From assembly GCA_051984825.1 (NCBI GenBank), contig JBPYES010000402.1, positions 1-21,878 of the forward strand: a stretch of DNA of 21,878 nt, in the 5' to 3' direction. Shown in pieces: positions 4,033 through 21,578 of this stretch; the first letter of the stretch is position 1; every line of letters starts with the position of its first letter. The translations under genes were made by a program, and so were the position numbers. The notes below the pieces were generated by a model. That model had not been told where the DNA came from. It searched no databases and worked only from the letters and a program-made list of their open reading frames with translations. Source of the stretch: Jatrophihabitantaceae bacterium (lineage in GTDB: Bacteria > Actinomycetota > Actinomycetes > Mycobacteriales > Jatrophihabitantaceae).

Positions 4033-4464
4033 TCAGCCGCTGACGGTGATCCCCATCGAACGGGCCGTGCCGGCGATGATCTTCGCAGCCTGGTCGACGT
4101 CGTTGGCGTTGAGATCTTCCATCTTCGTCTGGGCGATCTCGCGCACCTGGTCCATGGTCACGGTGCCGACCTTGTTCGTGTGCGGCTCGCCGCTGCCCTT
4201 GTCGACGCCGGCGGCCTTCTTCAGCAGCTGTGCGGCCGGCGGCGTCTTGGTGACGAAGGTGAACGAACGGTCCTCGTAGACCGAGATCTCGACCGGGATG
4301 ATCTGCCCGCGCTGCGACTCGGTGGCCGCGTTGTACTGCCGGCAGAACTCCATGATGTTCACGCCGTGCTGGCCGAGTGCCGGACCCACGGGCGGCGCCG
4401 GGTTGGCGGCGCCGGCCTGGATCTGCAGCTTGATGATCGCGGCGAGCTTCTTCTTGGGAGGCAT
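4033..4464 (-). CDS. rplK: 50S ribosomal protein L11
   Basis: The protein begins [41 protein letters not shown]..., the canonical L11 N-terminus. The ATG is at 4464..4462. The ORF track extends this frame upstream to 4818, but that extension is Arg-rich junk overlapping nusG. Confidence 0.95.
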
Positions 4465-4475
4465 TGGCTTCTTTC

Positions 4476-5318
4476 TCAGATCTTGGCGACTTGGCTGAAC
4501 GACAGCTCGACAGGCGTCTCGCGTCCGAAGATGGAGACGAGCACCTGCAGTTTCTGGTGCACCGGGTCGATGTCGCTGATCGTCGCCGGCAGGGTGGCGA
4601 ACGGGCCGTCCATGACCGTGACGGACTCGCCGACGCTGAAGTCGACGACCTGGACCTCTGGCTTTGCGGTGGTGGTCGTGGTGCCCCGCGCGACCGCCGC
4701 GGCCTTCTGGGTGGCCGGTGCAAGAATCTTGGCGACCTCGTCGAGCGACAGCGGCGACGGGCGGGACGTGGCTCCGACGAACCCGGTCACACCCGGCGTG
4801 TTGCGCACCGCGCCCCACGACTCGTCGTTGAGGTCCATCCGAACCAGGATGTAGCCCGGGAACACCTTGCGCTGCACCTGCTGGCGCTTGCCGTTCTTGA
4901 TCTCGACGACCTCTTCGGTCGGCACCTCGACCTGGAATATGTACTCCTCCATGTCCAGGCTCTGAATGCGGCTTTCGAGGTTGGCCTTCACCTTGTTCTC
5001 GTAGCCGGCGTAGGAGTGCACCACGTACCAGTCGCCGATCTGATTGCGCAGTTCGCGGCGCAATGTCTCGATCGGGTCCTCTTCCTCGGCGTCTTCGGCC
5101 GCGGGTTCGGCAACGGCCGTATCGGCCGGAGCCTCGGGCTCGGCCGCCTCGGCCTCGACCGGCGCGGCGGACTCCACAGCGGCCGCGTCGTCGCCCGCCT
5201 CGTCGCGCACCTCTGCCTCGGCGTCGTTCTCATTCGCGCCGAGCAGTCGCGCAGCGGCGGCGAGGTCGGCTTGCTCTCTCGACCGCGCGTCGCCAGGCGC
5301 GCTCTCGTAGTCGGACAC
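4476..5318 (-). CDS. nusG: Transcription termination/antitermination factor NusG, with the acidic N-terminal extension typical of actinobacteria
   Basis: 280 aa. The C-terminal two thirds carry the NGN and KOW regions (...[19 protein letters not shown]...FPGYILVRM...[23 protein letters not shown]...). An AGGAAG SD lies upstream. Confidence 0.95.
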
Positions 5319-5371: not shown

Positions 5372-5608
5372 TCAGCCGAAGATCTTCAGGACCAGCTTGG
5401 CAAGCCCGAGGTCCAGGAAGCCCACTATCGACACCATGATCACCACGAAGACGATCACAACCGCCGTGTACGTCACCAGTTCGTGGCGCGAAGGCCAGAG
5501 GACCTTGCGCATCTCCGAGATGATTTCGCGGATGTAGCGCCCCGGGCGGCCGCCGGGTCCCCCGCTCGACGGACGGGGTGCTGCGGACTCGGTGCGCGTC
5601 GCAGTCAC
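5372..5608 (-). CDS. secE: Preprotein translocase subunit SecE
   Basis: The C-terminus ...RYIREIISEMRKVLWPSRHELVTYTAVVIVFVVIMVSIVGFLDLGLAKLVLKIFG shows the single TM helix and conserved motif. I chose the GTG at 5608 because AGGAGAG lies 5 nt upstream of it. The track ORF begins 33 nt earlier, at GTG 5641, which is an alternative start. Confidence 0.85.
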   Translation of the reverse strand: MTATRTESAAPRPSSGGPGGRPGRYIREIISEMRKVLWPSRHELVTYTAVVIVFVVIMVSIVGFLDLGLAKLVLKIFG

Positions 5609-5683
5609 GATCTCTCCTCTCGGTGGCGTGCCGGGTGGCACGCCATGTTGCTCGGGCGCCGCTTCTCATACATCAGCGCTCCG

Positions 5684-5756
5684 CAGGGGCGACAGGACTC
5701 GAACCTGCAACCGCCGGTTTTGGAGACCGGTGCTCTACCAATTGAGCCACGCCCCT
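5684..5756 (-). tRNA. trpT: tRNA-Trp (anticodon CCA)
   Basis: The minus-strand sequence is AGGGGCGTGGCTCAATTGGTAGAGCACCGGTCTCCAAAACCGG...GGTTCGAGTCCTGTCGCCCCTG. It folds as a cloverleaf with anticodon loop CTCCAAA. It sits directly upstream of secE, as in other actinobacteria. Confidence 0.9.
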
Positions 5757-8722: not shown

Positions 8723-8726
8723 CGTA

Positions 8727-9002
8727 TTACGCCACCAGGTCCTGGTACTCGGGGTGCCGGGAGATGAACCCGCGTACAAAGGGACACAGAGGGACGACGG
8801 CGAGCCCACGGCGGCGCACGTCGTCAAGAGCCCAGCGGACAAGCGCAGTGCCCACGCCCTTGCCCTCGGCTTCGGCCCGTACCTCGGTGTGCGTGAAGAT
8901 CACCCGGCCGGGCTCGGTGCGGTAGTAGGCGAATCCGACGGGCTGGTCGTCAAGGCGCGCCTCGTACTGGAATTCGTCGCTGTTGTCACGTACGTCGATC
9001 AT
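8727..9002 (-). CDS. Small GNAT-like (Acetyltransf_CG-type) N-acetyltransferase domain protein
   Basis: 91 aa, MIDVRDNSDEFQYEARLDDQPVGFAYYRTEPGRVIFTHTEV...GKGVGTALVRWALDDVRRRGLAVVPLCPFV. Its start ATG overlaps the stop of the upstream peptidase gene as ATGA. The ORF track begins 30 codons earlier at 9092, but that stretch is Arg-rich and overlaps the peptidase gene. Confidence 0.6.
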   Translation of the reverse strand: MIDVRDNSDEFQYEARLDDQPVGFAYYRTEPGRVIFTHTEVRAEAEGKGVGTALVRWALDDVRRRGLAVVPLCPFVRGFISRHPEYQDLVA

Positions 9003-10450
9003 GGCAGGGCGTGCGCCTTTCGAAGGATAGAGATCGCCGCCGGCAGATCGTGCAGCGCGGCCTCGAGGTCGGACGGGTTGGCGATGCGCCACGCGTTGGC
9101 GTTGACATAGCAGCGGATCGCCGCGTCGAATTTCGCCGGCCCTGCCGCTGCTCGAGCAGCCTGCAACGCGGCAGATCCCTTGTTGTAGGTGACGGTGTAG
9201 TAGAGGTCTGCGTAGCTGCCGTAGGACGCCGTCGGCGCGTCGACGTTGCCGCGCATGTTCAGCGTCCCGGGAGGTGGCGGGTCATCGTCGACGAGTTGCT
9301 CGGCGTAGCTCGCGAACGCCTCGTCCAGCCAGGCGTGGGTGGCCTGCGAGTCGCCCACCATCGCGTAGAACCACTGGTGGGCCGTCTCGTGCACGGCGAC
9401 CAGCTGTGAGCTGTCGAGCATCAGGATCGAGCTCGGGTACTCGATGCCGCCGCCCGGCGCCGGCACCCTTGCCACCGACAGCGACGGGAACGGGAACCGT
9501 CCGAACCGCTTGGCATGCTCGGTCATCGCCAGCCGGAACAGCGGCACCAGCTGATCGCGTACGCCGGCGCTCGGGGCCCCAACTCGGAGTTTGACGCCGT
9601 TCACCGTGGAGTCGCTGACCACGAAGGGGCCGACGGCGACGCTTACATCCCGGGCAGCGGCGATCGTCGAATGCCAGGTGCGCGCGCTGCCACCGGCCGG
9701 CGGATCGGACGGATCGCCGGACATGATCACCGTGTCGGACGCCGGCGCCGTGACGGTGAGGTCGGTCTGCATCGCCTCGCTCGTCGCACTTTCGGCGGCG
9801 AACTGCAACATCGGCTCGGTGTGCCAGCCGTAGCCCCGTTCCCAGGCCAGCAGCGGCTGCGCCGAGGCGAACCACGCGAACCGTTGGGCGCCGCTGCCGA
9901 CCCGGCCGAAGCGGTCGAACGACTCGTTGCCAAGTGTCACCGTGAACGTGATGTCGGCCGTGACGGTGGTCCCGGCCGGGATCCGTGCGGCGAACGGAAT
10001 GCGCAGCAGTCCGCCCTGGGTGCCCGGCGCCGCGCCGTCGCCGTCGTAGTGCGGGGCGCCGCCGCCGAGATCAGCCGACGCCTTGTCGATCACGATCTTG
10101 TTCCCGGCCGCGACGGTCGGAGCAGTGTTGGCAGTGAGCCGAAAGACCAGTTCGGTGATCGGGAGGTCCGGGGTGAACTCGATGTGCTCGCTGCCCTGCA
10201 CCGTGCCGAGGTCGGCGCCGACCGTGAACCGCAGCGTCACCCTGGGCCGGTGCGGGTCCGGCGCTATGTAGCTTGCGGGGCAGCCGCCCGGCGCGGCGCT
10301 ACTCGGCGACGCGGTCGGCGTGGTCGGCACGCCCGAGGACGGCGCAGTTGGCCGAGAGGGCGAGGCTCCGAGCGATCCGCGGCCGCCGGTGGTGGTCGAG
10401 CAGGCGGCCAGCACGAGCGCGGCGCCGGCCACCGCCAGCCCGATCCTCAC
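8999..10450 (-). CDS. Secreted lipoprotein of the gluzincin zinc metallopeptidase type (M1-like)
   Basis: 483 aa. The N-terminus MRIGLAVAGAALVLAACSTT has a signal peptide and lipobox. A Pro/Ser/Thr-rich linker follows. The motif HETAHQWFYAMVGDSQATHAWLDEAF is an exact HExxH-x18-E zinc site. The start overlaps the hadB-like stop (ATGA) and the stop overlaps the GNAT start (ATGA). Confidence 0.8.
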   Translation of the reverse strand: MRIGLAVAGAALVLAACSTTTGGRGSLGASPSRPTAPSSGVPTTPTASPSSAAPGGCPASYIAPDPHRPRVTLRFTVGADLGTVQGSEHIEFTPDLPITELVFRLTANTAPTVAAGNKIVIDKASADLGGGAPHYDGDGAAPGTQGGLLRIPFAARIPAGTTVTADITFTVTLGNESFDRFGRVGSGAQRFAWFASAQPLLAWERGYGWHTEPMLQFAAESATSEAMQTDLTVTAPASDTVIMSGDPSDPPAGGSARTWHSTIAAARDVSVAVGPFVVSDSTVNGVKLRVGAPSAGVRDQLVPLFRLAMTEHAKRFGRFPFPSLSVARVPAPGGGIEYPSSILMLDSSQLVAVHETAHQWFYAMVGDSQATHAWLDEAFASYAEQLVDDDPPPPGTLNMRGNVDAPTASYGSYADLYYTVTYNKGSAALQAARAAAGPAKFDAAIRCYVNANAWRIANPSDLEAALHDLPAAISILRKAHALP

Positions 10451-10851
10451 GAGGGCGGACGCACGATCGCGCGCGCCTTCGCGAGCACGGTCTGGCCGTT
10501 CACGGTCGCGGTGAGGTCGACCACGACGAGCCCGTCGTCACGAACCGCCGACACTTCGCCCGCGACGTCGAGCACCGCGCCGTCGGGGTCCGGCACCACC
10601 ACAGGGCGGGTGAACCGCACTCCGTATTCGACCAGCGCGCCTGGGTCGCCGGCCCAGTCGGTGACGACCCGAGCCGCCAGGGCCATCGTGTACATGCCGT
10701 GCGCGATGACGTTGGGCAGGCCGACCGACGTTGCGAAACGCTCGTTCCAGTGAATCGGGTTGAAGTCGCCGGACGCGCCCGCGTACCGAACCAGATCGGC
10801 GCGCCCGATAGGGAAGGTCTGCGCCGGCAGGACCGTGCCGACCGTGGTCAT
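10447..10851 (-). CDS. MaoC-like (R)-specific hydratase/dehydratase, the HadB-like catalytic subunit
   Basis: 134 aa. The hydratase-2 motif GASGDFNPIHWNERFA is present (catalytic Asp/His), on a hot-dog fold. A 4-nt overlap links it to the upstream hadA-like gene. Confidence 0.85.
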   Translation of the reverse strand: MTTVGTVLPAQTFPIGRADLVRYAGASGDFNPIHWNERFATSVGLPNVIAHGMYTMALAARVVTDWAGDPGALVEYGVRFTRPVVVPDPDGAVLDVAGEVSAVRDDGLVVVDLTATVNGQTVLAKARAIVRPPS

Positions 10852-11297
10852 GAGCCCGCCCCGCGGACGACGAGTGTCGCGTGCGCCGTGAGTACTGGCT
10901 CACCGTCCACAGTGGACACCTCGCCCTTCGTCGTAACGATGTCGTTGCCGGCCGCGGAACGGACGCTCTCGACCGTGACGACGACGGACAGCGCGTCCCC
11001 GGCGCGGATCGGGCGCACGTAGCTGAAGCGTTGCTCGCCGTGGACCACGCGCGAGTAGTCGACGCCGAGTTCCGGATCCATGATCACCTGGTGGCCGGCG
11101 CGCGACGTCACGAGGATGCCGAACGTCGGCGGCGCGATCACGTCGGGGTGGCCGTGGTCCTTCGCGGCGGCAGGGTCGCGGTAGACGGGGTTGGCGTCGC
11201 CGATGGCATCGGCGAACTCGCGGATCTTCTCGCGCCCCACCTCGTACGGCGGCGTGGGCGGGTAGACCCGCCCGACAAAGGACTGGTCGAGCGGCAT
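10848..11297 (-). CDS. MaoC-like hot-dog protein, a HadA-like non-catalytic partner subunit
   Basis: 149 aa. The N-terminal half resembles HadA (...YEVGREKIREFADAIGDANPVYRD...) and lacks the D-x4-H catalytic motif. It lies immediately upstream of the hadB-like gene and overlaps it. Confidence 0.8.
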   Translation of the reverse strand: MPLDQSFVGRVYPPTPPYEVGREKIREFADAIGDANPVYRDPAAAKDHGHPDVIAPPTFGILVTSRAGHQVIMDPELGVDYSRVVHGEQRFSYVRPIRAGDALSVVVTVESVRSAAGNDIVTTKGEVSTVDGEPVLTAHATLVVRGAGS

Positions 11298-11350
11298 GGA
11301 CCGACTCTATCCGCCGGGCCGCGTCGCTCGGCGGGTCTGCAGGCGAACGC

Positions 11351-12013
11351 TTATCGGCTACCCGCCGGTGCGACGGGCAGCGGATCGTCCAGGCCCAGCG
11401 TGATGTTGGCCCGGCGCAGCTCGCCGTCGATGACGTCCCAGATCGCGTGCCGCAGGTGCTCGACGAGACCGTGCCGGCTGATCGTGCGCGACTTCATCCA
11501 CCAGGCGAGGGTGTGCTCGACCATTCCCACCAGCGACTGCGCCGTGGGCTCGGCCAGCCTGGTGGGCAGCCCGAACGCCGTGGTGACGCCGCGGAGCAGC
11601 TCGGCAAGCTGATCCGCGATGGTTGCCTCGACGTCACCGAGCGCCGCGCCGCGCCGGCGCAGGAACTCGTACTGTCGCGGATGCGCCTCGACCCAGTCGC
11701 TGAGCGCCTCCAACGTGCCGCCGATGATCTCGTTCGCCGTAGCGCCGGACCGCAGCGGCGCCTTGAGCTGGGCGATGACGATCTCCCCCATGCGCCGGCA
11801 GACGGCGCCGCACAGGTCCTCCTTGTCGCGGAAGTAGCGATACAGCACGGTGCGGCTGACCCGGGCCGTTGCGGCGATCTCCTCCGCACTGGAGTCGGCC
11901 CCGTAGCGATCGATGGCCGCCACGCCGGCATCGACGAGGACGGCACGGCGGCGGATCCGGTGCTCGTTCCACCGCTCCCGTCGCCCGTCCGCCGGACGTG
12001 CGGCCTCACTCAC
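11351..12013 (-). CDS. TetR-family transcriptional regulator
   Basis: 220 aa. The N-terminal HTH ...SAEEIAATARVSRTVLYRYFRDKEDL is TetR-like. It sits between rpmG and the hadAB-like operon on the same strand. Confidence 0.85.
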   Translation of the reverse strand: MSEAARPADGRRERWNEHRIRRRAVLVDAGVAAIDRYGADSSAEEIAATARVSRTVLYRYFRDKEDLCGAVCRRMGEIVIAQLKAPLRSGATANEIIGGTLEALSDWVEAHPRQYEFLRRRGAALGDVEATIADQLAELLRGVTTAFGLPTRLAEPTAQSLVGMVEHTLAWWMKSRTISRHGLVEHLRHAIWDVIDGELRRANITLGLDDPLPVAPAGSR

Positions 12014-12048
12014 GCCAGGAGCGCACTAGGTGTGACGCGATGTAATAC

Positions 12049-12213: not shown

Positions 12214-12248
12214 GGGAAGTGCCTTTCGAAGAGATGGACGAACGTTCG

Positions 12249-12322
12249 TAGCGAGGGCCGGATTTGAACCGGCGACACAGCGATTATGAGCCGCTTGCTC
12301 TGCCAGACTGAGCTACCCCGCC
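12249..12322 (-). tRNA. tRNA-Met (anticodon CAT), of elongator type
   Basis: The minus-strand sequence GGCGGGGTAGCTCAGTCTGGCAGAGCAAGCGGCTCATAATCGCTGTGTCGCCGGTTCAAATCCGGCCCTCGCTA folds as a cloverleaf with anticodon loop CTCATAA. The acceptor stem has two G-U pairs, so the exact ends are uncertain by 1-2 nt. It lacks the initiator hallmarks (no 3 G-C pairs in the anticodon stem, no C1-A72). It could instead be a lysidine-modified tRNA-Ile. Confidence 0.75.
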
Positions 12323-12338
12323 GTTGGGTGTCAGTATG

Positions 12339-12411
12339 AGCCCCTTTACGGAATCGAACCGTAGACCTTCTCCTTACCATGGAGACGCTCTGCCGACTGA
12401 GCTAAAGGGGC
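12339..12411 (-). tRNA. tRNA-Thr (anticodon GGT)
   Basis: The minus-strand sequence GCCCCTTTAGCTCAGTCGGCAGAGCGTCTCCATGGTAAGGAGAAGGTCTACGGTTCGATTCCGTAAAGGGGCT has a perfect 7-bp acceptor stem and anticodon loop ATGGTAA. It sits upstream of tRNA-Met, matching the actinobacterial thrT-metT-rpmG order. Confidence 0.85.
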
Positions 12412-17099: not shown

Positions 17100-17717
17100 G
17101 TGATCGTGACGGCGACCGGCCGGCGCCGTACCTTCGCAACGGTGGGGGTATCGGCCCGGCAGGAAGCGTTACTGCTGGCGCGAATCCAGGCAGGCGACGG
17201 CGACGCGCTCGGCGCGGTGTACGACCAGCACGCCGGCCTGGTGTACGGGCTGGCCCGCCGCGTGACCCGTGACGAGCAGCTTGCTCGCGACATCACCCAG
17301 GAGGTCTTCACGTACCTGTGGGAGCTGCCCGGCCGGGTCGACCTGACGCGTGGTTCGTTGCGCTCCTACCTAGCGATGGTCGCGCACCGCCGTGCCGTCG
17401 ACGAGGTCCGCCGCCATGAGCGGCGTACCCGCACCGAAGCCGCCTCGGCGCGTCCCGAGGCCGAGGAGGGGCCAGAACCCGAAGTGGTCGCCGCCACCAC
17501 GGCGAGCTGGCGCAAAACACGGCTGGCCGCGATGCTCGACAGGCTGCCGGCCGAACAACGCGAGGCGGTGCAGCTCGCCTATTACCGCGGCCAGACCTAT
17601 ACCCAGGTGGCGAAGACACTCGGCATACCGGAAGGGACCGCCAAGTCGCGGCTGCGACTCGCTCTCGCCCGGCTGCGCACCCTGCTCGACGACGAGACCC
17701 GGGCGGCGATCAGATGA
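17100..17717 (+). CDS. ECF (group 4) RNA polymerase sigma-70 factor, SigK-like
   Basis: 205 aa. Region 2 is ...LARIQAGDGDALGAVYDQHAGLVYGLARRVTRDEQLARDITQEVFTYLWE. Region 4 is ...LPAEQREAVQLAYYRGQTYTQVAKTLGIPEGTAKSRLRLALARLR. The start is uncertain: GTG 17100 (AGGTGA 12 nt upstream) or a later GTG. Confidence 0.85.
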   Translation: MIVTATGRRRTFATVGVSARQEALLLARIQAGDGDALGAVYDQHAGLVYGLARRVTRDEQLARDITQEVFTYLWELPGRVDLTRGSLRSYLAMVAHRRAVDEVRRHERRTRTEAASARPEAEEGPEPEVVAATTASWRKTRLAAMLDRLPAEQREAVQLAYYRGQTYTQVAKTLGIPEGTAKSRLRLALARLRTLLDDETRAAIR

Positions 17718-18712
17718 ACCGGCCTTACGACGATGAGACGGCAGCCCTACTCGCGCTTGACGCCCTGGAAGCCGACGAGCAGGCCGACGCCGAGCTGCGC
17801 ATCGGGACGTTCCCACCGGGCCTCGCCGACGCGGTCGCAACGCTTGCCGAAGACGCCGTCGTCGACCCGCCCACAGGGCTTCGCGCCGACACACTCGCCC
17901 GTGCCAAGTCCCGTCGCCCGGAGGGCCGGCCCGTCGGAGCGGCCCAGCCGTGTCCGCCTGCGGAGGCGTTCGACCGCACCGTCACCGACCTGGACCGCCT
18001 GCTGAACTCGCTCACCGACGCCGACTGGAACGCACCCGCGCACCCCGATCACGGCCGGGTTCGCGACCTGGTCGCACACCTGGTCGGCGTCGAGCGGCTC
18101 GTGCTGCGCTGGCTCGCGGCGGACGAGGCCGTCCCCGACCTTCCCGACCACGTCGCCGCGACGCGGCCGGTGGTGGCCCAGCTTGCCGACACCGAGCCCC
18201 GCGACGTCGCCAGGCAGTGGTACGAGGCGGCCCGCGCGGTTGCTGCGGCCGCGGCGACCGGCGACATCACTCGCCCGGTGACGTTCCACGACATGACCAT
18301 CAGCGTCAAGCGTCTGCTCGTCATGCGCACCTTCGAGTTGTGGGCGCACGCCACGGACGTCTGCCTGGCCGCCGGCCGCCCGCTGCTGCAACTGGACGCG
18401 GAGCGCATGACCACCCTGTCCGCTGAGCTCATGACGGTCCTGCCCGTGGCCCTGGCCTACCAGGGCAGCGCCGCCCCGGGCCGGAGTGCTCGGTTCGTGC
18501 TGACCGGCCTTGCCGGTGGCACCTACACAGTGCCCCTGGCGCCGGGCACCCCGGCCACACGGCCGGCCGTCACGATCATCACCGACCCGGGCGAGCTGTG
18601 CCGGGTCGCGGCACGCCGGCTCGATCCGGCCGAACTGGACGTCACCATCGACGGCGACCACGAGCTGGCCGAACTCGTGCTCGCCGGCGTCGGCGCGCTC
18701 GCCCTCGACTAG
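17714..18712 (+). CDS. Anti-sigma factor that fuses an RskA-like N-terminal sigma-binding region to a C-terminal mycothiol-dependent maleylpyruvate-isomerase-N / DinB-like (TIGR03083-type) domain. No transmembrane segment is present.
   Basis: 332 aa. Its ATG overlaps the sigma stop (ATGA). The N-terminus MNRPYDDETAALLALDALEADEQADAELRIG resembles anti-sigma-K N-termini. The central/C-terminal stretch ...LVAHLVGVERLV...FELWAHATDV... fits the MDMPI_N/DinB four-helix family. No hydrophobic helix is seen. Confidence 0.75.
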   Translation: MNRPYDDETAALLALDALEADEQADAELRIGTFPPGLADAVATLAEDAVVDPPTGLRADTLARAKSRRPEGRPVGAAQPCPPAEAFDRTVTDLDRLLNSLTDADWNAPAHPDHGRVRDLVAHLVGVERLVLRWLAADEAVPDLPDHVAATRPVVAQLADTEPRDVARQWYEAARAVAAAAATGDITRPVTFHDMTISVKRLLVMRTFELWAHATDVCLAAGRPLLQLDAERMTTLSAELMTVLPVALAYQGSAAPGRSARFVLTGLAGGTYTVPLAPGTPATRPAVTIITDPGELCRVAARRLDPAELDVTIDGDHELAELVLAGVGALALD

Positions 18713-20209: not shown

Positions 20210-20254
20210 TAGACAGTAGAGCGAGCAGGGCAGTATACTCGAACATGTGTTTGA
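20210..20254 (+). promoter_or_regulatory. SigA-type promoter (-35 TAGACA, 18-nt spacer, -10 TATACT) followed immediately by a LexA/Cheo-type SOS box TCGAAC-ATGT-GTTTGA that spans the start codon of the DUF222-HNH gene
   Basis: Read from the sequence. The -35 is at 20210..20215 and the -10 at 20234..20239. The box at 20239..20254 matches the Gram-positive/mycobacterial consensus TCGAAC-N4-GTTCGA at 11 of 12 positions. The region is locally AT-rich. Confidence 0.55.
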
Positions 20255-21578
20255 ACGTCCCGCACCGCCGCTGACGGTCGCTGAGGTGCTCGACGACCCG
20301 GATCAAGCCGCAGCATGGTCGGCGCGAGACGTGCCGGGTCCCGATACCGGGGTAAGCGTGTCGTTGCTCGACCCGAGCACGTTGTCTCACACGGGGAGGG
20401 TCGATCTCCTAGTGGCGTTGGAGCGGCAGGCCGCGTGGCTGGCGGCGATGCAGCAGCGCGTGCTCGCTGCGATGGCTGCTGATCCGGCGGCGGCAGCCGA
20501 CGATGTGGATCGGACGGGTCAAGGTTGGCTGCGCGAGGACGTTGCCTGTGCGCTGCGCTTGTCGGGGCTCACCGCGCAGCGGCGCATCGCGGTGGCGCAG
20601 ACGCTCGCCGACCAGTTGCCGGCCACGCTCGTGCAACTCGGCCGGGGCGAGATCAGCTACCTGCACGCGGCGAGCCTCGCTGAGGCCGTGTATTCGCTGG
20701 ACCACGAACGGGCAACGCAGGTGGAAGCACGGGTATTGCTGCGAGCTGGTGAACAGACCCTGTCGGAATTCCGGCGCGTCGTGCGCCGAGCGGTTGCGTC
20801 TGTCGCCACGGCGAGCATGGAGGAGCTGCACGCGCAGGCGATGGCCGAACGGCGGATGTGCGTTACTCCACGCGACGACGGCATGGCTGAACTCTGGGCG
20901 TTGTTGCCTGCGGAGGGCGCCGCGGCGATCAGTGCTGCTGTCGATGCGCTTGGTTCGGCCACCTCCCCCAACGACCCGCGCGCCGCCGACCAGCGGCGCG
21001 CGGACGCACTTGTCGACCTCGCGGTCGCCGCATTGCACAACCCACTGCTACCGAAGGCGCAGCGCATGCGCCCGGCGGTTCAGGTCACCGTGGCCTTGTC
21101 CACGCTGCTCGGTGTGGACGACCAGCCTGGCGAGCTCGCTGGACACGGCCCCATCCCGGCGTCGCTGGCCCGGCGGCTCGCGGCCGACACGTCTGGCACT
21201 TGGCGACGGCTGGTTTCCGATCCGCTCAGCGGGCAGCTGCTCGATTACGGCCGCGCAACGTATCGCCCGCCGAAGGACCTCAGCGAGTTCGTGATCGCCC
21301 GCGATCAGGTGTGCGTCTTCCCGACCTGCTCCCGTCCGGCGCGGCGCTGCCACCTCGACCATCGAATCCCTTATCACAGAGGTGGATCCACCAGCCGCGA
21401 CAACATCGCAGCGCTGTGCGAGCGCCACCACATCGGCAAGCACAAGACAACCTGGACACCTCGGCGTGAGCTCGACGGCACGCACACGTGGGTCAGCCCG
21501 ACCGGTCACCGCTACAGATCCCGACCACCCGATCTGCCGGTCGACGCCACGTTGGCGGACAAACCTCCACCGTTCTGA
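20247..21578 (+). CDS. DUF222-domain protein with a C-terminal HNH endonuclease motif, of the 'REP13E12-like' family
   Basis: 443 aa with a GTG start. It has the N-terminal DUF222 architecture (...RVDLLVALERQAAWLAAMQQRVLA...). The C-terminal HNH/zinc motif is ...CVFPTCSRPARRCHLDHRIPYHRGGSTSRDNIAALCERHHIGKH. Confidence 0.85.
   Translation: MFERPAPPLTVAEVLDDPDQAAAWSARDVPGPDTGVSVSLLDPSTLSHTGRVDLLVALERQAAWLAAMQQRVLAAMAADPAAAADDVDRTGQGWLREDVACALRLSGLTAQRRIAVAQTLADQLPATLVQLGRGEISYLHAASLAEAVYSLDHERATQVEARVLLRAGEQTLSEFRRVVRRAVASVATASMEELHAQAMAERRMCVTPRDDGMAELWALLPAEGAAAISAAVDALGSATSPNDPRAADQRRADALVDLAVAALHNPLLPKAQRMRPAVQVTVALSTLLGVDDQPGELAGHGPIPASLARRLAADTSGTWRRLVSDPLSGQLLDYGRATYRPPKDLSEFVIARDQVCVFPTCSRPARRCHLDHRIPYHRGGSTSRDNIAALCERHHIGKHKTTWTPRRELDGTHTWVSPTGHRYRSRPPDLPVDATLADKPPPF

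Follow-up and report, generated by a model that had tools for sequence, protein, structure and literature searches.

An exported M1-type lipoprotein peptidase gene is a long-standing neighbour of the hadA–hadB dehydratase pair in Jatrophihabitantaceae and Geodermatophilaceae

In a 21,878-nt stretch of DNA from a Jatrophihabitantaceae bacterium (GCA_051984825.1, contig JBPYES010000402.1, positions 1-21,878, forward strand; hereafter "the window"), the genes for a HadA-like and a HadB-like dehydratase subunit are followed by the gene for an M1-type zinc peptidase lipoprotein and by that for a minimal GNAT protein, with the gene for a TetR-family regulator upstream. We consider the locus best explained, with a probability of about 60%, as an ancient, lineage-wide operon that co-expresses a housekeeping dehydratase pair of type II fatty-acid synthesis (FAS-II) with an exported M1 lipoprotein, to which a FasR-like TetR and a YjdJ-type GNAT were added locally; the link between dehydratase and peptidase would be one of co-expression. 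Gene calls relied on a map of open reading frames, an ARAGORN tRNA scan and family searches (Pfam, NCBIfam, Rfam; Table 1). These reproduced the gene list and placement of an earlier note made from this DNA, and they identify the window as the conserved actinobacterial rpmG … secE-nusG neighbourhood of a Jatrophihabitantaceae-like genome, in which all five proteins of the operon region (TetR, HadA, HadB, peptidase and GNAT) score above the Pfam thresholds.

The antiquity of the arrangement is apparent from gene order. Homologues of the peptidase number more than 1000, those closest to it coming from Jatrophihabitantaceae-type metagenome bins. Neighbourhoods were gathered from homologue-encoding contigs and from a scan of one genome per species, and all window proteins were searched against the fetched loci (numbered L below) by tblastn. 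We found hadA, hadB and the peptidase gene in this order at 38 distinct related loci, spanning Jatrophihabitantaceae bins, "Mycobacteriales" bins and cultured Geodermatophilus, Blastococcus, Modestobacter and Goekera, and in the cultured Geodermatophilaceae genera the peptidase is 41-46% identical to the window protein. Upstream of hadA, rpmG is present at nearly all of these loci, wherever an upstream flank was available, and in most of the 38 a convergent aspC lies downstream of the peptidase gene. The linkage, proposed earlier from one contig, is thus no accident of that contig. While stop/start overlaps of 4 nt are common in high-GC operons and unremarkable alone, the hadB/peptidase overlap (ATGA or GTGA) is kept at no fewer than 19 of the 38 loci, i.e. 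at at least 19 independent loci, which exceeds chance; at most of the others, 1-65 bp lie between the two genes. The unit that has been conserved, rpmG–hadA–hadB–peptidase facing aspC, is an old, lineage-wide arrangement and not a recently "rebuilt" locus, as had been proposed, being older than the split between Jatrophihabitantaceae and Geodermatophilaceae. Presumably, it was in the common ancestor of the two families that the M1 lipoprotein gene became established immediately behind hadB; phylogenomics puts Jatrophihabitans next to Antricoccus and Geodermatophilaceae (PMC6113628), which fits a single ancestral acquisition of the peptidase.

On the other hand, TetR and GNAT are lineage-restricted accessory genes in two variable slots. 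A TetR gene precedes hadA at eight of the 38 loci and a GNAT gene follows the peptidase at five, and the only loci to have both are those of the three closest relatives (L006, L009, L010). The four-gene TetR-linked operon is therefore a local elaboration of hadA–hadB–peptidase, and the four genes have not been conserved together. In relatives, the slots between rpmG and hadA and between the peptidase and aspC hold differing genes, e.g. for DUF4873, a toxin-antitoxin pair, LysR with a major facilitator superfamily (MFS) protein, or beta-lactamases.

Some details of these relatives deserve mention. A DUF4873 gene (~100 aa) lies between TetR (or rpmG) and hadA at L007/L010 (990-1301) and L002 (6783-7091), as well as in L009 and L012-L015, and in L007 there is an overlap with the TetR stop; the window and L006 lack the gene, which suggests a recent deletion there. 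Insertions cluster between the peptidase (or GNAT) and aspC as well, a hot spot that in L006 (7730-8448), L007 (4071-6349) and L008 (7793-11111) is occupied by a ParD-like antitoxin pair, by LysR and an MFS transporter, or by a beta-lactamase and an M19 peptidase. Between hadB and the peptidase, three loci carry a DUF2505 gene (~165 aa), its start and the hadB stop overlapping (L012 6453-6953, L014 6477-6983, L017 6446-6940), and two carry a gene for an unannotated protein of 306-328 aa (L020 5983-6903, L069 5806-6792). In L013, L016 and L043, matches to TetR, peptidase and aspC are split over several frames, which looks like long-read frameshift errors in metagenome bins rather than pseudogenes.

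Turning to the first two members of the unit, the translated HadB-like protein carries the hydratase-2 motif YAGASGDFNPIH with both Asp and His kept (the motif being defined as …G-D-x-N-P-[LIV]-H…), whereas HadA-like reads GDANPVY and has a Tyr at the position of the catalytic His. HadB-like is accordingly predicted to be the catalytic subunit and HadA-like, because of this Tyr, its non-catalytic single-hotdog partner. HadB-like matches M. tuberculosis HadB (PDB 5ZY8_B) with 119.6 bits, and HadA-like matches HadA, HadC and HadD chains in PDB. Scores against the HadA and HadB families are 133.6 bits (NF040624, equivalog cut-off 180) and 133.7 bits (PRK13693, cut-off 203), so that by sequence the two proteins are homologous to HadA/HadB and not called equivalogs. 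Moreover, no hadC follows hadB in the window, as the earlier note had remarked, and Jatrophihabitantaceae-like lineages stand outside the mycolate producers. Because of the missing hadC, the scores below cut-off and the non-mycolate lineage, hadA and hadB most likely encode a heterodimeric (3R)-hydroxyacyl-acyl carrier protein (ACP) dehydratase serving general FAS-II, and the label "mycolate dehydratase" given to the locus before is unlikely to fit. The Streptomyces precedent also speaks against it: the rpmG-linked MaoC pair SCO4636/SCO4637 is cited as the general, and only known, FAS-II hydroxyacyl-ACP dehydratase of the genus (PMC5882110).

The window pair resembles these known systems in several respects. 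As in HadABC of M. tuberculosis FAS-II (Rv0635-Rv0637; HadAB/HadBC) and SCO4636/SCO4637 ("FabA") of S. coelicolor, two adjacent single-hotdog, MaoC-type genes lie downstream of rpmG, with TetR interposed here although not in most relatives, and the chromosomal position between tRNA-Thr/Met-rpmG and tRNA-Trp-secE-nusG is common to all. Besides, as in M. tuberculosis HadAB, it is HadB that has the hydratase-2 motif and HadA that lacks the His. Unlike Rv0635-Rv0637, the window has no hadC, and genes for TetR and a lipoprotein peptidase are part of the unit.

The third member of the unit, a protein of 483 aa, is to judge from its sequence and predicted structure a true two-domain M1-type zinc aminopeptidase-like lipoprotein. 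Its match to Pfam PF01433 clears the threshold of 27.7 bits (Table 1), and it has a zinc site HETAH-x18-E (residues 354-358 and E377; codons 9391..9320), as previously described. Comparison with 32 homologues (31-74% identity) showed no variation in the zinc ligands (H354, H358, E377), in the catalytic residues E355 and Tyr422 (the latter in TYNKG, which is the Y-x-K-G segment) or in E337; Y422 aligns with the Tyr of the Deinococcus M1 enzyme PDB 6A8Z in a profile alignment. In the GxMEN exopeptidase motif of M1 enzymes, the Glu binds the free amino group of the substrate. The corresponding segment of the window protein, which aligns with 6A8Z, reads GGIEY (334-338), with G335 and E337 invariant and the Met and Asn replaced. 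An AlphaFold2 model with a well-predicted body (predicted local distance difference test 79, predicted template modelling [TM] score 0.80) was matched by Foldseek, at a probability of 1.00, to aminopeptidase N (APN), ERAP1 and the two-domain 6A8Z, which was also the best PDB match of the peptidase-family profile (E = 3e-23); leukotriene A4 hydrolase was among the PDB matches as well. A chance HExxH in another fold, which the earlier note had allowed for, can be ruled out, as Pfam, the PDB profile search and AlphaFold2/Foldseek all return M1.

The protein ends ~60 residues past the catalytic Tyr and lacks the ERAP1-like C-terminal helical domain of PepN/APN enzymes, and the fold alignment covers only the first half of APN and ERAP1 (target-normalised TM ~0.35) but the whole Deinococcus enzyme. 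Like D. radiodurans 6A8Z, it would combine an N-terminal beta domain with a thermolysin-like catalytic domain and no large C-terminal ERAP1-like domain (TM ~0.6 over the whole chain, one of the best fold matches), and the two share HExxH-x18-E, a Glu at the GxMEN position and the catalytic Tyr. They differ in that identity is only ~17-19% and that the window protein has a lipoprotein signal and a Pro/Ser/Thr linker, the GGIEY motif and a conserved Cys57/Cys447 pair. Sec/SPII lipoprotein signals consist of a positive N-terminal region, a hydrophobic stretch and a lipobox [LVI][ASTVI][GAS]C. The N-terminus MRIGLAVAGAALVLAAC is such a signal, with lipobox LAAC and Cys17 at 10402..10400; this Cys is invariant in 28 homologues, and all had-linked orthologues have a lipobox. 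A disordered Pro/Ser/Thr-rich linker extends to ~residue 55, and, given signal and linker, the peptidase is therefore expected to work outside the membrane. Within the exported part, C447 is invariant and C57 nearly so in close homologues (codons ~9112-9110 and ~10282-10280), which is consistent with a disulfide. The mycobacterial LpqM, a lipoprotein metalloproteinase with a lipobox and HExxH, was considered as a candidate for the closest relative; no Mycobacterium loci appear among the best 80 genome matches to the peptidase.

Read directly from the sequence, each of the three junctions of the putative operon is a 4-nt stop/start overlap. The earlier note took all three to be ATGA, which is true of hadA/hadB (10851..10848, the hadB ATG overlapping the hadA stop) and of peptidase/GNAT (9002..8999, the GNAT ATG overlapping the peptidase stop); hadB/peptidase (10450..10447), however, is GTGA, the peptidase start codon being GTG. 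This GTG lacks an upstream Shine-Dalgarno sequence, and a promoter could be accommodated only within the hadB coding sequence. Because of the missing Shine-Dalgarno sequence, the peptidase is likely translated by ribosomes that reinitiate after termination on hadB. This falls short of the obligatory co-translation and fixed stoichiometry previously read into the junctions, which 4-nt overlaps do not imply. A complex of HadAB with the peptidase is not to be expected either, because the latter is Sec-exported and the dehydratase cytoplasmic; the two would share neither a complex nor a substrate, and the tie between them would consist in co-expression with membrane-lipid synthesis and growth.

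As to the start of the transcript, a TAGAGT hexamer at 11309..11304 occupies positions -12 to -7 from the hadA ATG, which has no Shine-Dalgarno sequence. By comparing loci, we found that in the window and at 11 loci of the Jatrophihabitantaceae clade (L001, L002, L006, L009-L014, L017, L043) the hadA ATG has a TANNNT hexamer at -12 or -13, whatever the upstream gene (rpmG, TetR or DUF4873); prediction of sigma-70 consensus promoters returned none in the window. A -10 element alone with no Shine-Dalgarno sequence is the pattern of actinobacterial leaderless promoters. This suggests that in this clade the hadA transcript is leaderless and starts at the hadA ATG, and hadA, hadB, peptidase and GNAT would probably share one such mRNA, made from the TAGAGT that ends 6 nt before the ATG, with read-through from rpmG possible in the window too. 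Geodermatophilaceae have a conserved Shine-Dalgarno sequence, GAGAGGGCGGGAGC-ATG, closely after rpmG, suggestive of hadA expression by read-through from rpmG. At the other end, the GNAT and aspC stops are 4 bp apart (8723-8726). In agreement with the earlier note, no terminator was predicted at this junction, and the RNA across it does not fold better than shuffled sequence (z = 0.41).

Upstream of hadA, the co-directional TetR is the likely regulator of the operon. Both its N-terminal helix-turn-helix (TetR_N) and its ligand-binding helical C-terminal domain (TetR_C_32) were detected. FasR is its best NCBIfam match, though at 42.3 bits against an equivalog cut-off of 330, and PDB 6O6N and 6O6P match weakly over the full length. 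FasR is the acyl-CoA-sensing TetR activator of fas in M. tuberculosis (PDB 6O6N, 6O6O, 6O6P), and like FasR, the window gene adjoins genes of fatty-acid synthesis; in contrast to FasR, it lies co-directionally upstream of hadAB instead of acting on fas, and the score excludes orthology. We thus regard the protein as a distantly FasR-like regulator that likely acts on the hadA operon and is perhaps responsive to acyl-CoA. An imperfect inverted repeat (11311-11334) in the 53-bp region before hadA, whose coordinates the earlier note had given correctly, abuts the TAGAGT -10 element and may be the TetR operator. When the spacers that separate rpmG from tetR were compared for the window, L006, L009, L010 and L012, a conserved box emerged, GCGTCACA(G/C)(G/C)TAG (L006 ~4414-4452, L009 ~4930-4968, L010 ~263-318, window 12014-12048), conceivably an operator or promoter element for tetR itself, and L006, L009 and L010 have TA(C/T)GCT at -12 to -7 from the tetR start codon.

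The GNAT at the end of the operon is well above the PF14542 threshold of 30 bits (Table 1) and matches E. coli YjdJ (PDB 5I0C) over its full length (E = 8e-9). Like YjdJ and Arabidopsis At1g77540, it is a single minimal GNAT core of ~90 aa; unlike that of YjdJ, its gene overlaps a peptidase gene, an arrangement found in few close relatives only. A longer version of 121 aa, starting from a GTG at 9092, was rejected, as the Pfam match begins at residue 42 and related contigs call a form of 91-92 aa.

What the peptidase might act on is hinted at by its more distant homologues. Those of 31-41% identity do not adjoin hadAB, and neighbour clustering placed ~20 of them downstream of a ~1319-aa NRPS (non-ribosomal peptide synthetase) of the Pls/PosA family (TIGR02353, 562 bits), in Pseudonocardia, Actinomycetospora, Agrococcus and Jiangellales and as second copies in Geodermatophilus (L041, L044, L046, L048, L049, L051, L053-L058, L060, L065, L068, L071-L073). 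Often, a BPL_N-like protein (~239 aa) and an HGSNAT/Acyl_transf_3 membrane protein (~466 aa) are encoded between synthetase and peptidase (e.g. L053 40-8365; L056 2356-8320), whereas in Actinomycetospora the peptidase gene directly follows that of the synthetase; on Rhodococcus plasmids (L092), the Pls–BPL_N–HGSNAT cassette has no peptidase gene. In a neighbour-joining tree, the had-linked peptidases group together in a clade of their own, to which the Pls-linked clade is sister, and G. africanus and G. siccatus have one copy of each type. Among the loci recovered, only a nested pair of Blastococcus paralogues represents the had clade away from hadAB. Charge was compared as a possible clue to a cationic substrate: the Pls-linked clade is uniformly very acidic (median net charge -32) and the window protein mildly so (-11), and had-linked peptidases of Geodermatophilaceae are also very acidic.

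Because this sister clade is encoded in Pls/PosA synthetase clusters, we infer a role at the cell surface for the window protein as well: it would be an M1 aminopeptidase-type hydrolase, anchored at the surface, whose extracellular substrates are peptides or polyamides such as cationic poly-amino acids. There is a precedent in S. albulus, where, according to published reports, pldII encodes an extracellular metallopeptidase, lies downstream of pls with a 4-bp overlap and yields a product that degrades epsilon-poly-lysine (PMC4361855, PMC9223678, PMC8117764). The window gene has in common with pldII that it encodes a metallopeptidase and overlaps the upstream gene by 4 bp, to which the Pls/PosA clusters of the sister clade can be added; it differs in following hadB and not a synthetase, which makes the likeness a lead by gene context and not a family assignment. 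Searches for a sequence link to S. albulus PldII were of limited yield. The best 120 matches listed for a Pls-clade profile were proteins of Pseudonocardiales and Geodermatophilaceae only, a search seeded with a Streptomyces homologue returned its own close orthologues only, and in tblastn against plasmids the Streptomyces homologues (~30% identity) did not adjoin pls, while the Pls clusters met with on plasmids lacked a peptidase gene or had dat/ask genes in its place.

The precedent can be taken further, namely to a PldII-like hydrolase of cationic homo-poly-amino acids (e.g. epsilon-poly-L-lysine) that would constitutively protect the surface against the cell's own or competitors' polymers. 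Though compatible with the operon reading, this role strikes us as rather unlikely: the adjacency of the sister clade to Pls/PosA synthetases, immediate in Actinomycetospora, its strong acidity, and the overlapping pldII of S. albulus with its polymer-degrading product (PMC4361855, PMC9223678) speak for it, yet the likeness to S. albulus PldII is one of gene context, the window has no Pls gene, its protein has a net charge of only -11, and genomes with two copies suggest that the two clades have differing roles. At the opposite extreme, peptidase and dehydratase may be neighbours and nothing else, the peptidase gene having been inserted into a slowly rearranging essential region, with an internal promoter of its own and overlaps that are by-products of compaction. 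The region from hadB to aspC is indeed a hot spot of insertion, its content varying among relatives and consisting of unrelated genes; hadB and the peptidase are separated by 3-65 bp, or by whole genes, at several loci; and such overlaps abound in high-GC genomes generally. We nevertheless hold mere adjacency to be unlikely, as the same 4-nt overlap is found from Jatrophihabitantaceae to Geodermatophilaceae at a peptidase identity of 41-46%, the peptidase GTG has neither a Shine-Dalgarno sequence nor promoter room outside hadB, and peptidases of this clade, save for the nested Blastococcus pair, were never recovered apart from hadAB.

Quite unlikely, in our estimation, is a dedicated fatty-acyl envelope or lipopeptide module under TetR control, the idea that the earlier note had favoured, in which HadAB would supply an enoyl-acyl chain, the exported M1 enzyme process the product and the GNAT acetylate an intermediate. 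Neither an ACP, an acyl ligase, an NRPS or polyketide synthase nor an exporter or other transporter is encoded in the locus, GNAT and TetR are not conserved along with the core, the Had pair occupies the conserved housekeeping site behind rpmG, the Glu and Tyr of the aminopeptidase type are retained in the peptidase, and dehydratase and peptidase reside on opposite sides of the membrane. These points stand against the uniform direction and 4-nt overlaps of the genes, the retention of the hadB/peptidase overlap in at least 19 loci, the weak likeness of TetR to FasR, which suggests a lipid-sensing type, the DUF2505 gene between hadB and peptidase in three loci, and the inclusion in the M1 family of leukotriene A4 hydrolase, a lipid-acting member that works on a fatty-acid derivative and was among the profile matches. 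A long shot is that the lipoprotein is tied to the products of the dehydratase in a different manner, i.e. that it acts on a lipid, N-acylated or lipopeptide component of the envelope or trims a surface protein whose lipidation needs FAS-II output; if true, Geodermatophilaceae and Jatrophihabitantaceae would possess in hadA–hadB–peptidase a module for envelope biogenesis that is specific to their lineage and can be tuned by GNAT and TetR where these are present.

Several points also weigh against the co-expression operon that we prefer. Operon and leaderless start are both read from sequence, and the hydrolase role from the gene context of a paralogous clade. Because another gene intervenes between hadB and the peptidase in five loci, their tight coupling is not obligatory, while an overlap kept over so long an evolutionary span could reflect a real functional dependence. 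On the regulatory side, the repeats of the candidate operator are short and GC-rich and could have arisen by chance, and the -10 element of the window tetR is degenerate (TGCGCT).

The earlier note did not recognise the combination as a described system, and our literature search likewise turned up no paper on a hadAB–M1 lipoprotein operon or on a division between had-linked and Pls-linked peptidases. The arrangement is old and conserved, but apparently undescribed. All of its components belong to known families, no new biochemistry is demonstrated, and the genomes of its cultured carriers are already public. To our knowledge, the rpmG-linked dehydratase operon is usually discussed for mycobacteria only; here, the dehydratase operon of a whole sister lineage stably includes the gene for an exported M1 peptidase as its third, attached to hadB by an overlap of 4 nt that has been conserved. 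If the operon is real, it would be a clean example from nature of one unit expressing both a housekeeping enzyme of the cytoplasm and a hydrolase of the cell surface, whereas TetR and the mini-GNAT, to which the locus owes its appearance of a four-gene system, are interchangeable passengers. Besides, the family of ~470-aa actinobacterial M1 lipoproteins divides into a hadAB-linked clade and one embedded in Pls/PosA clusters, which offers a concrete substrate hypothesis for proteins annotated merely as "M1 family aminopeptidase".

Table 1. Features of the window around the hadA–hadB–peptidase unit, in order from high to low coordinates.
Feature	Position	Strand	Evidence or remark
tRNA-Thr(GGT)	12338-12411	minus	ARAGORN; Rfam; upstream landmark of conserved block
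tRNA-Met(CAT)	12248-12322	minus	ARAGORN; Rfam; upstream landmark of conserved block
rpmG, ribosomal protein L33, 54 aa	12049-12213	minus	TIGR01023 79.6 bits vs cut-off 23.95
rpmG–tetR spacer, 35 bp, box GCGTCACACCTAG	12014-12048	minus	Spacer comparison among relatives
TetR-family regulator, 220 aa	11351-12013	minus	TetR_N 35.6 bits, TetR_C_32 29.1 bits
tetR–hadA intergenic region, 53 bp	11298-11350	minus	TAGAGT hexamer; imperfect inverted repeat
HadA-like subunit, 149 aa	10848-11297	minus	Pfam FAS1_DH_region 121 bits
HadB-like subunit, 134 aa	10447-10851	minus	Pfam MaoC_dehydratas 87.9 bits
M1-type zinc peptidase lipoprotein, 483 aa	8999-10450	minus	Pfam Peptidase_M1 53 bits
YjdJ-type mini-GNAT, 91 aa	8727-9002	minus	Pfam Acetyltransf_CG (PF14542) 95.4 bits
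aspC, convergent aspartate-aminotransferase-type gene, 400 aa	7520-8722	plus	PRK06107 362.7 bits, below equivalog cut-off; boundary of the operon
Flotillin/Band_7 gene, 447 aa	5890-7233	minus	FloT-like 173 bits; short ORF (open reading frame) upstream
tRNA-Trp	5683-5756	minus	
secE	5372-5641	minus	Followed by nusG, rplA

In the Rfam scan, three tRNAs and no further structured RNA were found in the window; the tRNA-Thr/tRNA-Met block (12248..12411) scored 66.1 and 60.9 bits. The flotillin gene between aspC and tRNA-Trp/secE is also present in L006, L009 and L016 and absent from most other relatives. Farther along the window, on the plus strand, an ECF (extracytoplasmic function)-type sigma factor gene is overlapped by the gene for a protein with a DinB/MDMPI_N (mycothiol-dependent) domain (17100-18712), which may be an anti-sigma factor, and a DUF222/HNH endonuclease gene lies at 20247-21578.

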